A DNA stretch of 32,000 nt from Candidatus Saccharimonadota bacterium. Its GTDB lineage: Bacteria > Patescibacteriota > Gracilibacteria > UBA4473. Positions 16,590-28,378 of this stretch are shown here, piece by piece; the first letter of the stretch is position 1, and each line of letters opens with the position of its first letter. A model generated the notes under the pieces. It was not told the origin of the DNA. It saw nothing but the letters and a program-made list of their open reading frames with translations, and made no database searches. The DNA lies in the NCBI GenBank assembly GCA_030429505.1, contig JAUIFI010000001.1:240001-272000 (forward strand), written 5' to 3'. The position numbers were made by a program, and so were the translations under genes.

Positions 16590-17072
16590 ATGAATAAAAT
16601 AAATTCCGTTTTTGACTCTCAATGTTCTATACGATTAATTCTCGTCTTTACTTTCAGTTTACTGATTTCCAATCAAGTCAGCGCCCAAATGGCTGATGAT
16701 CATCAAGGATGTTTTCATGACTATACAATTTGGGATTCTTCTTATAACTATGATCCTGATGGAAAAGACTGGAATTTTAAGTTTATGACGAATAATACGC
16801 AATCCAACATTCCCTCTGTGGGATATGTAGATCTTCAGCCCGTAAATTTTTTACAACAATTTCTTGATCTCAATGGTGATGGACTACCAGATTACATCTA
16901 TTCGTTGCATGGAAAAAATCAAGGTCCACAAGGTGGGGCTGGAGAATATGTGATTCGGGATTGTATAGCACTTAATACTGGATCTGGTTTTGATATCGCT
17001 TATAAGTGCGTCTATGACTTGGATGCCAATGGCACAACCCGAAAATATCACGGTGATTGTGCCGGTGATTAA
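16590..17072 (+). CDS. Small secreted 4-Cys protein with one FG-GAP/TcB-propeller-like blade motif (paralog 1)
   Basis: 160 aa with a signal peptide (LILVFTFSLLISNQVSAQ). Motifs are CFHDYTIWDSS, FLDLNGDGLPDYIY, LNTGSGFDIAYKCV and YHGDCAG. It is a paralog of 17096-17569. Confidence 0.75.
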   Translation: MNKINSVFDSQCSIRLILVFTFSLLISNQVSAQMADDHQGCFHDYTIWDSSYNYDPDGKDWNFKFMTNNTQSNIPSVGYVDLQPVNFLQQFLDLNGDGLPDYIYSLHGKNQGPQGGAGEYVIRDCIALNTGSGFDIAYKCVYDLDANGTTRKYHGDCAGD

Positions 17073-17095
17073 TCGTATTTTCTAATTTTTTTCTC

Positions 17096-17569
17096 ATGTC
17101 AGTTTTTCTCTCGGCTCTTCGTTCTCAGCAAATCATAGCTTGGCTAATCATTGGGATTCTCTTAGGTTTTATGGTCAATGCTCAGTTTGTATCTCAGGCG
17201 GAGGAAGTGCCGGAAATAAGTGGTATAGTCTATAGCAGTGATGAAAGTGCTCCTTGTCTTAGTGATTATCAAGATTGGGATAGTTCTGGAACTTTTAAAA
17301 GTGGTGTTTCATGGGAAACTTACAATATTATCGGACAACAGAATAATGGAGGTGGGAGCATTCCTGTAAACCAGTTTTTAGAGATTAACGGTGATGGCTT
17401 AGTCGATCATGTCTATTACTATAACAGGATATCAGATAACAAAGCATACGTAGACGCCTGTACCATGCTCAATACAGGCTCAGGCTGGGAGATTGTGTAT
17501 AAATGTGTTACCACAGCTCAGGATGGAGTCTTTACCTACTACGGCGACTGTGCCGATACTTCTTCATAA
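17096..17569 (+). CDS. Small secreted 4-Cys protein with one FG-GAP/TcB-propeller-like blade motif (paralog 2)
   Basis: 157 aa with a signal/TM segment (IIAWLIIGILLGFMVNAQ). Motifs are CLSDYQDWDSS, FLEINGDGLVDHVYY, LNTGSGWEIVYKCV and YYGDCAD. It ends 8 nt before the RHS gene start. Confidence 0.75.
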   Translation: MSVFLSALRSQQIIAWLIIGILLGFMVNAQFVSQAEEVPEISGIVYSSDESAPCLSDYQDWDSSGTFKSGVSWETYNIIGQQNNGGGSIPVNQFLEINGDGLVDHVYYYNRISDNKAYVDACTMLNTGSGWEIVYKCVTTAQDGVFTYYGDCADTSS

Positions 17570-17577
17570 TTTTTCTC

Positions 17578-25915: not shown

Positions 25916-26410
25916 ATGAAAAATATAATTAAAGCTCTTTTGGGTAATTTTTTTATTTTTTTACTGCTTTATACAGTAATTTTTGTTCCTTTATTGAATT
26001 GTCCTGATCCAGATGTATTTACTCCAATATCCCCAGAAAGAGGCTTGTGTTGGAATGTGTTTAATATTAGTGATTTTATAAATTTATTAGGGCTTTCTTT
26101 TTTGTTTTCGACTTTTTTCGCTTTGGTGCTTTCTCTCTTTCTTTCTCTGGCTTCTTTTATAAGCAAGACTAATTATTCACTCCTTAAAATTCCTATTTAT
26201 TTTTTAGTGCCTTTACTTTTTATCTCAATCATTTTTACATTTTTAATAGCTAATATTCCCATTTTTGAAGTAATCGGGTCAAAACTAGATTTTATGTATT
26301 ATGATGAAATATTTTGGATTATCTTTGGAAGTTTTTTTAATATTATTTTTATAGAATTGTATTACAAAGTACCTTGGAAAAAGGTTTTTAGGAATGATAC
26401 AGTTATTTGA
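25916..26410 (+). CDS. Polytopic membrane protein, immunity-like (paralog 1; C-terminus ELYYKVPWKKVF)
   Basis: 164 aa with about 4 TM segments. It shares a CPDP/CDPP N-terminal loop and the C-terminal ELYYKVPWKKVF with 27419-27880. Its 3' end overlaps the orphan-2 start by 17 nt. Confidence 0.65.
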   Translation: MKNIIKALLGNFFIFLLLYTVIFVPLLNCPDPDVFTPISPERGLCWNVFNISDFINLLGLSFLFSTFFALVLSLFLSLASFISKTNYSLLKIPIYFLVPLLFISIIFTFLIANIPIFEVIGSKLDFMYYDEIFWIIFGSFFNIIFIELYYKVPWKKVFRNDTVI

Positions 26411-27422
26411 TAGGGACATGCAGACGTCAGGACAGAGTACGAGTCCTTTGGGAGTGGGGAAGAGTACGGCGGAGATGAAGATGAAAAACACCTTCCAAAA
26501 TTGGGATTTTGCGGATACGTGGGAGATGGAGGAAAATGTAAGTTATCCGATGTTGCAGGTGGAAAATAGTGGAGGAGGGAGTTGTACGGGAGAACCGACA
26601 TTGGTGTATCATCATGAAGATCACTTGACTGGAAGCAATGTCGACACCGACGAATCGGGAGCCTTGAACCAAGTCCTAGACTATTATGCGTTTGGGGCGA
26701 CGAGGATTGACGAGCAATACGGAAACTTCAACAACGATTATAAGTTCACAGGGAAGGAGAAGGATGCAGAGACGGGGTTGTATTACTATGGGGCGAGGTA
26801 TTATGACTCTGAGCTTGGACGGTTTATAAGTAGAGATACGTGGGAGGGGGAGTTGGAGAATCCGCAGAGTTTGAACAGGTACTCATATGTGCTGAATAAT
26901 CCGTTGAAGTATGTGGATCCGAGTGGGAATAGAGTGGAACTGGTAACAAGGCAGATGGATTATAAGTCCATGCCTACACAAACCTTTATACAAAATATAA
27001 AGAGATTTTTTGCTCAATTTGGAAATCACAGTTTTGTAAGAACTATACCAGATAATCCTAGTGATTTTGGAGGAGTAGAAAAAATGACACTAGGTGCTGG
27101 TCAGGACAAAGGTGGTATACTTGCTAAAGGTTATAACAATCCAAATGATTTTGACCCAAAGACAAAAATAAAAGAAATTAATGTTATACAAACACCAAAA
27201 GGAATGACTGATTCAGAACACATTGGTAGAATATTGGGCACGTTTGCTACGGAACTTATTCGTGGTTCAGGAGGAAGTTTGGACAATATAAAAAATTCTT
27301 TTGGAATTGATCTAGGACTTGACTCTGGAGGATTGCAAGGAGGAAAAATTATTGAACAAAACTTGCAAACTCCAAATAAAAATGATGAAAATGATAAAGA
27401 TTCTAAATCTTCTAGAAAATGA
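26394..27422 (+). CDS. Orphan RHS C-terminal cassette 2 (GLUG tail, complete RHS core 3' half, and a 163-aa distinct Cys-free toxin domain)
   Basis: 342 aa with its own ATG (MIQLFDRDMQTSGQ...). It is colinear with main-gene 22169-22686 up to DPSGN (26916-26930) and then unique. Confidence 0.8.
   Translation: MIQLFDRDMQTSGQSTSPLGVGKSTAEMKMKNTFQNWDFADTWEMEENVSYPMLQVENSGGGSCTGEPTLVYHHEDHLTGSNVDTDESGALNQVLDYYAFGATRIDEQYGNFNNDYKFTGKEKDAETGLYYYGARYYDSELGRFISRDTWEGELENPQSLNRYSYVLNNPLKYVDPSGNRVELVTRQMDYKSMPTQTFIQNIKRFFAQFGNHSFVRTIPDNPSDFGGVEKMTLGAGQDKGGILAKGYNNPNDFDPKTKIKEINVIQTPKGMTDSEHIGRILGTFATELIRGSGGSLDNIKNSFGIDLGLDSGGLQGGKIIEQNLQTPNKNDENDKDSKSSRK
26413..26930 (+). repeat. 518-bp homology block in orphan 2
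   Basis: Aligns without indels to 22169-22686. Positions 26526-26698 are identical to 22282-22454 (173 bp, checked base by base). Confidence 0.9.
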
Positions 27423-27880
27423 AAAAATTTTTTAAATCTTTTTTAATTAATTGGTTATATTTTACAGTTATTGTGGGAGTTTCTATGACCTTTCCTCCAT
27501 GTGATCCCCCTGAGGGATACGTGACTTTTACTTTTTGTAGTAATAGCATAATTGATAATTTAATCACAAATTTGGTTCTTTCTTTCTTTCTTTCTTTCTT
27601 TCTTTCTTTTCTTTTATCTATTTATTCTTTCTTAAGAAAACAAAATTTTTGTTTTTTTAATATGAATATAGTTTATGTTCTGTTTGTTTTGCTTATAAGC
27701 GTATTTTCATTTTCATCAGAAAACAATCCTCAAAATGTTCTTCTGAACTATTTAGAGAATTATTTTTCAGTAGGAACTATAATTTATAATTTAAGTTTCA
27801 TATTGCTTATGTTGACACCGTATATAATCCTCATGGAATTGTATTACAAAGTGCCTTGGAAAAAGGTTTTTATGAAATGA
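27419..27880 (+). CDS. Polytopic membrane protein, candidate immunity for the orphan-2 toxin (paralog 2)
   Basis: 153 aa. It has an ATGA overlap with the orphan-2 stop and a C-terminal ELYYKVPWKKVFMK. It contains the (TTCT)8 tract, which encodes LSFFLSFFLSF. Confidence 0.65.
   Translation: MKKFFKSFLINWLYFTVIVGVSMTFPPCDPPEGYVTFTFCSNSIIDNLITNLVLSFFLSFFLSFLLSIYSFLRKQNFCFFNMNIVYVLFVLLISVFSFSSENNPQNVLLNYLENYFSVGTIIYNLSFILLMLTPYIILMELYYKVPWKKVFMK
27576..27607 (+). repeat. (TTCT)8 tetranucleotide microsatellite inside a CDS
   Basis: Eight perfect tandem TTCT units were counted from 27576 to 27607. The paralog 25916-26410 has no such tract at the equivalent position. Confidence 0.9.
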
Positions 27881-28378
27881 TACAGTTATTTGATAGAGAC
27901 ATGCAGACATCAGGACAGAGTACGAGTCCTTTGGGCGTGGGGAAGAGTACGGTGGAGATGAAGATGAAAAACACCTTCCAAAATTGGGACTTTGTGGATA
28001 CGTGGGAGATAGAGGAAAATGTAAGTTATCCGATGTTGCAGGTGGAAAGCACTTCAAGTTGTGCAGGTGGATCAATCATCATTTACCACCATGAGGATCA
28101 TCTAACTGGGAGTAATGTGGATACGGATGAGGCGGGGAATCTGAATCAGGTCTTGGATTATTATGCGTACGGATCAACCCGAATCGACGAACAGTTTGGA
28201 TCGTTCAGTAACGACTATAAGTTTACAGGGAAGGAGAAGGATGCGGAGACGGGATTGTATTACTATGGAGCGAGGTATTATGACTCTGAGCTTGCTTGGG
28301 CGGTTTATCTCACGGGATACTTGGGAGAGTATTTTATCGGACGGAAATAACGCTATTCGATTCGTAAAAAAACTATAA
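27877..28378 (+). pseudogene. Orphan RHS cassette 3, truncated and frameshifted (5' half only, no toxin domain)
   Basis: MIQLFDRDMQTSGQ...YYGARYYDSEL is followed by a GCTT tandem duplication (28290-28297) that shifts the frame. The restored frame reads GRFISRDTWE, then the unrelated SILSDGNNAIRFVKKL and a stop. Its ATG overlaps the upstream stop (ATGA). Confidence 0.8.

Follow-up and report, generated by a model that had tools for sequence, protein, structure and literature searches.

A window of 32,000 nucleotides (nt), taken from contig JAUIFI010000001.1, was analysed here, and between positions 16590 and 28378 it carries, on the + strand, what is very probably a polymorphic RHS toxin locus. 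The largest gene of this locus encodes an RHS protein with a Sec signal that is predicted to fold as a cocoon resembling the TcB-TcC toxins but lacking their beta-propeller, and two genes located just upstream, hereafter P1 and P2, encode small secreted proteins related to a single propeller blade. We consider it likely that this is a chromosomal, interbacterial polymorphic-toxin locus in which a propeller-less TcB-TcC-like cocoon is served by blade partners encoded in trans that act as cap, gate or adaptor. A first-pass annotation of the same DNA had described a polymorphic-toxin locus of the SpvB-RHS type, with a Sec signal and orphan cassettes. The Pfam and NCBIfam domains and the homology of the cassettes support this description, and the list of open reading frames (ORFs) and their translations agree with its gene order and coordinates. 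However, it had missed the loss of the propeller, the conserved blade partners and a GLUG insert in the large protein, which constitute the real anomaly of the locus.

Predicted architecture of the cocoon and its candidate upstream partners

The features that carry this interpretation are listed below (window coordinates, strand, description and basis; aa, amino acids; AF2, AlphaFold2 model).

16590-17072, + strand: P1, candidate single-FG-GAP-blade partner, 160 aa (paralogy to P2, conserved family, AF2)
17096-17569, + strand: P2, second partner paralog, 157 aa, with a YYGDCA tail (sequence comparison)
17578-23238, + strand: predicted RHS cocoon toxin, fused TcB-TcC-like, Sec signal, 1,886 aa (Pfam, TIGR03696, AF2 and Foldseek)
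17578-17832, + strand: signal peptide (aa 1-26, ending in TFA before QEE) and acidic Pro/Thr/Glu stalk (aa 27-85) (sequence reading)
18613-18699, + strand: SpvB-to-midN junction, aa 346-374, a short linker at the propeller site of relatives and of TcB (BLASTP, alignment)
21517-22353, + strand: GLUG/Peptidase_M26_N-type beta-helix-like insert, about 270 aa, before the RHS core (Pfam)
22438-22686, + strand: RHS-associated core, autoproteolytic plug region with a DPTGN end (TIGR03696, E 1.9e-21)

The 1,886-aa ORF is identical to a protein called by NCBI on a contig of 1,023,206 bp. It had been described as a signal-peptide SpvB-YD/RHS protein ending in DPTGN plus 183 aa, and this is borne out by Pfam, NCBIfam and the sequence. 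The protein opens with a signal-like N-terminus that was read from the sequence, and the acidic stalk announced after this signal could be located; such stalks are also found in relatives. Pfam detects SpvB at aa 103-307 (E 2e-19), TcdB_toxin_midN at aa 373-462 and RHS repeats, and NCBIfam places the RHS-associated core TIGR03696 at aa 1621-1702. The DPTGN motif occupies aa 1699-1703, and the core could be aligned to those of YenC2, Tse5 and RhsP. With 64 homologs as input, AF2 modelled aa 80-1279 with a pLDDT of 92.1 and a pTM of 0.85. The best Foldseek matches of this model in the Protein Data Bank (PDB) are all TcdB2-TccC3 structures (for 4O9X, E 4.6e-58 and a TM-score normalised to the query, TMq, of 0.84), with TMq of 0.82-0.85 versus 0.3-0.56 for the Rhs proteins of type VI secretion systems (T6SS). 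Since TcdB2-TccC3 comes far ahead of both T6SS Rhs proteins and teneurins in Foldseek, the RHS protein is, as modelled, a single-chain TcB-TcC-like cocoon.

The propeller, by contrast, has no counterpart in this chain. In BLASTP comparisons, aa 66-346 of the window protein match aa 135-396 of the relative P0110 and aa 374-1313 match aa 987-1918. Hence, about 28 aa separate the SpvB and mid-N regions of the window protein, where relatives have roughly 330-590 aa more (about 590 extra aa in P0110, 460 in P0096 and 360 in P0051). Junction lengths were also taken from a 65-sequence alignment, over the region matching window aa 340-380: the junction measures 32-45 aa in the window protein and 39 close relatives; 24 more distant relatives have about 370-490 aa there, and a single sequence has 153 aa. 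In the long forms, this place is taken by six to eight FG-GAP/VCBS blades, and a blade profile search of the propeller-less RHS ORFs found no blade inside them. Moreover, because the SpvB match stops at aa 307 and the mid-N match starts at aa 373, already at position 71 of its profile, the window protein has no room for a propeller. As judged by these comparisons, the window cocoon belongs to a clade devoid of the FG-GAP beta-propeller, a part of roughly 330-450 aa. In TcdB2, the propeller (residues 376-691) closes the bottom of the cocoon, binds TcA and provides the exit route of the toxin (bioRxiv 10.1101/590430). Since the propeller is missing, the window cocoon appears to have no part for docking TcA, which fits the lack of a TcA gene nearby.

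P1 and P2 had been described as two paralogous small secreted proteins. Indeed, both have hydrophobic signal-like N-termini and they share 34% identity (E 1e-16). P1 contains four Cys, an NGDGLPD motif and an HGDCA tail. Its AF2 model has a pLDDT of 78 overall and of about 90 in the beta domain, and the five strands found past residue 86 could correspond to one blade and one additional strand. Relatives of P1 and P2 were collected by an exhaustive HMMER search (152 representatives at E ≤ 1e-30). The proteins retrieved include 98 stand-alone single-unit partners of 127-241 aa, almost all of which (95 of the 98) carry GDCA within their last 15 residues and most of which (82 of the 98) have exactly four Cys; five members of the family contain two or three tandem units. 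The invariant positions are N95, D97, G98, L99 and D101 (the NGDGLxD loop), G131, C140 and the C-terminal GDCA, and D93, G96, C41 and C125 are nearly invariant. A scan of metagenomes with a manually written degenerate DNA pattern retrieved 12 short contigs, five of them with true members of the family. Another contig scan, with D[ILV]NGDGLxD[YHF], was rejected: the matches listed were mostly propeller blades in large proteins, which were kept only as propeller-bearing controls.

No dedicated model for the partner family exists in Pfam or NCBIfam, which makes this family a good candidate for a new Pfam/InterPro entry. Pfam FG-GAP_3 is weakly matched by 7 of 33 members. Furthermore, the partner profile matches six to eight tandem blades in SpvB-RHS proteins that do bear a propeller; its region 92-141 matches each cis-propeller blade, and blade 1 gives the match reaching furthest toward the N-terminus of the profile in 26 of 48 large proteins. 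Therefore, the partner is, by these profile matches, a predicted stand-alone relative of an FG-GAP blade. Each P1/P2-type protein holds one blade-sized unit rather than a closed seven-blade propeller in one chain. One partner also weakly matches Pfam CarG-like and the profile weakly matches CarG in the PDB (4O7J), these matches being confined to the DxNxDGLxDY loop. The invariant C-terminal tail of the family is YYGDCA.

The genomic position of the partner genes links them to the cocoon. In the window and in nine other loci, the gene that immediately precedes a propeller-less SpvB-RHS gene encodes a partner, in the same orientation and only a short gap away. There is one copy in L001, L025 and one JGI contig, two in L002, L011, L012, L023 and L003, a Saccharibacteria metagenome-assembled genome (MAG), and three in L013. 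In L013, the third partner seemed fused in frame to the RHS ORF (3947-4783), a fusion that was discarded as the junction is a run of N, i.e. a scaffold gap. Three further contigs apparently carry both partner and RHS genes (indirect match), and contigs L014, L017 and L022 end before any RHS gene could appear. The RHS genes of the partner loci, where long enough, align across the junction without insertion. Conversely, no partner gene lies upstream of the RHS gene in the propeller-bearing L015, L016 and P0110 contigs, and when L015 and L016 were searched in six frames with the profile, the only blades detected lay within the large protein. Partner and cis propeller thus have a complementary distribution in the loci sampled. 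The adjacency is kept in MAGs labelled Saccharibacteria or Gracilibacteria, whose RHS proteins share only 26-60% identity with that of the window. It had been suggested that accessory genes of the locus supply the missing delivery part; given the conserved blade partners, the upstream ones are the best candidates. P1 and P2 are probably functional partners of the cocoon, as this synteny suggests, and may also replace the propeller structurally, a further step that we regard as rather doubtful.

A third peculiarity, absent from the first-pass annotation, is a segment of about 270 aa (roughly aa 1314-1592) located between the last shell strands and the core of the RHS protein. It scores 21.0 bits with Pfam Glug (cut-off 20.5) and 26.7 with Peptidase_M26_N, below the cut-off of 27.7. 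The corresponding site is essentially empty in most relatives and holds 170-530 aa in 16 of 95. In P0055, the relative whose insert was checked, the site holds a lectin-like insert made of a DUF2341 and a ConA-like Laminin_G_3 domain. The shell site before the core is therefore, as far as these alignments indicate, a recurrent insertion hot spot, and the GLUG insert would be an outward-facing and exchangeable binding domain.

Toxin cassettes, immunity candidates and genomic surroundings

The end of the RHS gene and the genes that follow it comprise the features below.

22687-23238, + strand: CT1, predicted toxin region, 183 aa, an approximately 80-aa linker/entry segment followed by an approximately 80-aa CdiA-CT-like domain (phmmer)
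23231-23623, + strand: putative CT1 immunity protein, 130 aa, Cys-rich, cytoplasmic (position: 8-nt overlap with the toxin gene)
23626-23928, + strand: immunity-like or accessory membrane protein, 100 aa (hydrophobic segments in the sequence)
23944-24624, + strand: orphan cassette 1, last 35 aa or so of an RHS core ending in DPSGN plus a distinct 188-aa C-terminal domain (homology)
24621-25387, + strand: immunity-like pair of small cytoplasmic proteins, 137 and 115 aa, weak paralogs (BLASTP)
25481-26410, + strand: 139-aa N-terminally anchored protein and 164-aa polytopic membrane protein (the latter at 25916-26410) (sequence, paralogy)
26394-27422, + strand: orphan cassette 2, end of a GLUG insert and full RHS core ending in DPSGN plus a distinct 163-aa C-terminal domain (TIGR03696, E 2.8e-24)
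27419-27880, + strand: putative orphan 2 immunity protein, 153-aa polytopic membrane protein (position, paralogy to 25916-26410)
27856-28378, + strand: orphan cassette 3, degenerate remnant, frameshifted and truncated after RDTWE, no toxin domain (sequence)

Some details of the earlier description have to be amended. Gaps were said to be of 23 nt or less, but one intergenic gap reaches 93 nt (25388-25480). Five small genes (137, 115, 139, 164 and 153 aa), and not six or more, follow the first two immunity-like genes. Two of the three announced orphan RHS cassettes are intact, whereas the third is a frameshifted and truncated remnant without toxin. Lastly, the 183-aa C-terminal domain is not unique, since its core (aa 1783-1860) matches a CdiA-type toxin chain (PDB 8EY4, E 8.6e-15) that is entitled 'PT-VENN domain-containing protein'. 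With phmmer, CT1 thus divides into a segment of about 80 aa without matches and a domain of about 78 aa (CT1 aa 80-157) similar to 8EY4. CT1 is predicted to be a CdiA-CT-like toxin domain. A word-index homolog search with CT1 found nothing, and the C-terminal domains of orphans 1 and 2 have no match in Pfam or the PDB.

The similarity between the proteins encoded by the main gene and by the orphans ends exactly at DP(T/S)GN. At the DNA level, the main gene shares 519 nt at 88% with orphan 2 (95% over the first 300 nt), 431 nt at 79% with orphan 3 and only about 100 nt at 75% with orphan 1. These 100-520 nt shared with the 3' end of the main gene should be enough for cassette exchange. Moreover, orphans 2 and 3 start within the end of the GLUG insert, and therefore exchange can begin there.

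Small genes overlap or abut each C-terminal domain, and none of the small downstream genes matches a known immunity family in Pfam or NCBIfam. The 137- and 115-aa proteins are 28% identical (E 8e-5 with BLASTP). The two polytopic membrane proteins (25916-26410 and 27419-27880, + strand) are also paralogs (34% identity), and the second one follows orphan 2. Both end in ELYYKVPWKKVF and each of their genes overlaps the start of an orphan cassette; hence, the duplicated unit takes in the 3' end of the gene for the membrane protein (55 nt, 87% identity). Related loci with the same layout encode recognised toxin or immunity proteins, namely barnase and Barstar in L012 and Imm44 in L016.

The GC content is uneven across positions 17000-29000 of the window: 43-46% in the body of the RHS gene, 26-34% in the orphan/immunity array and 33-41% in the flanks. 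The GC skew is positive from about 22 kb. A scan of the window for promoters and terminators gave only background levels.

The first-pass annotation had seen no PAAR/VgrG, TcA or wall-anchoring part in the flanks of the locus. Indeed, the RHS protein, the 32-kb window and the related loci examined are all without a PAAR/VgrG, TcA, LXG or wall-anchor match (Pfam, with NCBIfam for the protein). The largest other ORF of the window encodes 477 aa, and neither the window nor the related loci examined contain a TcA-sized or TcA-like gene. Pfam detects no wall-binding, SLH or LPXTG module in the RHS protein, and a C-terminal sortase signal is excluded because the C-terminus is the toxin. Its N-terminus, a Sec-type signal, has no match to LXG/WXG domains in Pfam or NCBIfam. 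The locus had been described as having no recognisable delivery machinery. This holds for T6SS, TcA, LXG and wall-anchoring parts, but the class has been known since 2012 and Sec export alone may suffice to bring the protein out of the cell.

According to Pfam, the flanking ORFs encode a sortase, a GluR0-like channel, a PilT-sized T2SSE ATPase, a ribonucleotide reductase, a signal peptidase, an fn3 protein, a thioredoxin-reductase-like protein and tRNA methyltransferases. The sortase gene lies at 56-832 (- strand). The channel gene (1578-2657, - strand) encodes 359 aa combining solute-binding and ligand-gated channel domains with a K+-channel pore, as in GluR0-like glutamate receptors. Positions 10260-13570 (+ strand) hold the genes of the signal peptidase, of the fn3-domain protein and of two proteins without family matches, possibly a cluster devoted to the processing of surface proteins or pilins. 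Rfam detects only two tRNAs, the adjacent tRNA-Leu(TAA) and tRNA-Cys(GCA) at 5435-5595 (- strand); a 205-aa ORF at 4998-5615 overlaps their genes and was dismissed as spurious.

Genetic code 25 was ruled out: long ORFs are intact under table 11 and, since TGA terminates 5 of 21 genes, the standard code applies. Assemblies of Candidatus Gracilibacteria, Peregrinibacteria and Saccharibacteria supply the nearest named relatives of both the RHS protein and the partners. Given the sortase in the window, the contig of 1.02 Mb, the use of TGA as stop and these relatives labelled as candidate phyla radiation (CPR), the host is probably a single-membrane bacterium of the Patescibacteria (CPR) with a genome of about 1 Mb. 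In such a host, Sec export alone would put the cocoon outside the cell, as for WapA of Bacillus subtilis.

Proposed mechanism and alternative explanations

We propose that the RHS protein would be exported unfolded by Sec over the single membrane, with cleavage of its signal peptide, and would fold extracellularly around its own C-terminus. An aspartyl self-cleavage would take place after DPTGN. P1 and P2 would attach to the cocoon at the end that no propeller closes, forming a trans-encoded cap, gate or adaptor, and the GLUG domain would bind the surface of a neighbouring cell. The freed C-terminal toxin would enter this cell via its N-terminal segment of about 80 aa, as toxins of contact-dependent inhibition (CDI) systems and of WapA do. 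Cells without the cognate immunity would be killed and siblings would be protected by the downstream immunity proteins. Toxin cassettes would be switched by recombination. One can go further and imagine that P1/P2-type copies form a possibly ring-like gate on the open cocoon that replaces the TcB propeller and opens, together with the GLUG or lectin domain, on contact with the target, but we regard this version as unlikely. Such a gate would make the locus a split 'BC + blades' delivery device that works without TcA and has so far been met mainly in Patescibacteria.

Several observations speak against a cocoon capped or gated by blade partners. A PDB fold search with the P1 model gave no significant match. 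The partner profile did not detect the sequences of Photorhabdus and Yersinia TcB propellers, and its best match in the PDB is an integrin FG-GAP motif with an E-value of only 0.17. Furthermore, the synteny sample amounts to about 10-13 loci that are phylogenetically clustered. Lastly, contig L020 carries, at 300-758, a degenerate partner (DYNGDYFPDY in place of DxNGDGLxDY) next to a XerC/D-like integrase gene and without RHS gene downstream; this copy may be a remnant of a lost locus. Such a stand-alone copy would also fit P1 and P2 being unrelated secreted proteins, such as adhesins, found next to the RHS gene by chance. However, this is very unlikely because the synteny, including orientation and small gaps, is conserved across RHS relatives sharing 26-60% identity with the window protein.

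The same partner-RHS synteny would fit an ordinary Sec-exported RHS toxin to which P1 and P2 are functionally coupled because they help the cocoon to fold or stabilise it outside the cell, or inhibit it by keeping it closed, rather than because they substitute for the propeller. Indeed, a cocoon of 1,886 aa exported unfolded must fold outside the cell. Nevertheless, this explanation accounts neither for the homology of the partner to a propeller blade nor for its presence without a cis propeller and its absence with one in the loci sampled, and we hold it to be improbable. The target of the toxin could also be different. An episymbiotic CPR cell could intoxicate its host bacterium, immunity serving only against self-intoxication. 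This is somewhat less improbable, although still unlikely. The small genome and the CPR affiliation suggest an episymbiotic lifestyle, and a lectin- or adhesin-like domain decorates the cocoon. Moreover, in two Saccharibacteria-like loci, with RHS proteins 45% identical, the partner-RHS-immunity module is directly followed by pilB (MshEN and T2SSE) and pilC (T2SSF) (noted at 10822-13329 in L012 and at 7615-10654 in L003), and type IV pili mediate host attachment in Saccharibacteria. However, this adjacency is absent from most related loci and from the window, which has only the PilT-sized T2SSE ATPase gene about 13 kb upstream (3071-4171, - strand), and no host is known. In addition, orphan arrays with paired immunity are a hallmark of kin-discrimination toxins (PMC3482391; PMC12419801).

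Finally, the RHS protein could belong to a canonical Tc (ABC) toxin, as its BC component, with the TcA gene at a distant place of the genome; the SpvB and TcdB_midN domains of the protein point that way, and so does TcdB2-TccC3 being its best fold match. We consider this the least probable of all explanations: the propeller that docks TcA is missing, which makes a distant TcA unlikely, and neither the window nor the related loci examined hold a TcA-sized gene. To our knowledge, Tc loci are not characterised by immunity genes or orphan arrays. The existence of tcC genes located away from tcA and tcB (PMC7861908) is compatible with this explanation, but the TcC proteins of the same Tc survey belong mostly to Proteobacteria (96.4%), with 3.2% in Firmicutes.

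Significance and comparison with known systems

In the literature searched, we found no explanation of how TcA-less SpvB-RHS toxins act on target cells, although the class has been known since 2012. The locus provides a concrete handle on such TcA-less delivery, with its propeller-less clade, its blade family and its insertion hot spot. The delivery question posed by a TcA-less Sec-exported cocoon is now tied to specific parts of the locus. If the blade proteins act as gate or adaptor, they would exemplify how an RHS cocoon can be assembled and opened extracellularly in a modular manner. The locus would in that case also encode a weapon of ultra-small episymbiotic bacteria, whose cell-cell interactions are little known.

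The closest known class is that of the 'TcdB/TcaC' toxins, which combine a signal peptide, SpvB, an integrin-like beta-propeller and RHS (Zhang et al. 2012, PMC3482391). These toxins are widespread, including in single-membrane lineages (PMC3482391). The window locus shares with them the signal peptide, SpvB, the RHS repeats, a variable C-terminal toxin and an immunity-like gene; it differs by the absence of the propeller in cis and by the separately encoded single-blade homologs. With the TcB-TcC proteins (TcdB2-TccC3, 4O9X; YenB-YenC2, 4IGL), it has in common SpvB, TcdB mid-N, the YD/RHS shell, the core and a C-terminal toxin, with TcB and TcC fused into a single chain, like the construct engineered for crystallography. 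Unlike them, it has neither propeller nor nearby TcA; it adds a Sec signal, immunity-like genes, orphan cassettes, a CdiA-CT-type (interbacterial) toxin, a GLUG insert on the shell and separate upstream blade proteins.

Other systems resemble the locus in part. WapA of Bacillus subtilis is a Sec-exported RHS toxin of a single-membrane host, with a polymorphic C-terminus and a downstream immunity gene, and it illustrates that contact-dependent killing can be carried out by an RHS protein exported through Sec. However, WapA carries a region that binds the cell wall and lacks an SpvB/TcB module, whereas Pfam finds no wall-binding domain in the window protein, and we know of no small blade partner described for WapA. 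The T6SS Rhs effectors (RhsA, 7Q97; Tse5, 8CP6; RhsP, 8H8A) share the RHS cocoon, the autoproteolytic core and the orphan arrays, and a small accessory gene just upstream of rhs, as P1 and P2 are here, is typical of their loci. In contrast, the window locus has no PAAR, VgrG, prePAAR or EagR-type (DUF1795) partner, its cocoon model gives the low TMq reported above with these effectors, and a T6SS is not expected in a bacterium without outer membrane.

Similarly, the CT1 core of about 78 aa resembles CdiA-CT (8EY4), a toxin module shared by CdiA and RHS carriers, as polymorphic toxins would lead one to expect, but the carrier is here an RHS cocoon rather than a CdiA filament accompanied by CdiB. 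Teneurins and bacterial teneurin-like proteins also have a YD shell and a plug, and teneurins are among the significant fold matches. They differ by a TMq of 0.2-0.46 to the window model, by a propeller of the NHL type in teneurins and by the absence of a cleaved toxin/immunity system. No description of a propeller-less clade with blade partners in trans and a GLUG-decorated shell was found in the literature searched. Hence, although the class of the locus was already known, the propeller-less cocoon clade, the conserved upstream blade family and the GLUG insert at an insertion hot spot are new.

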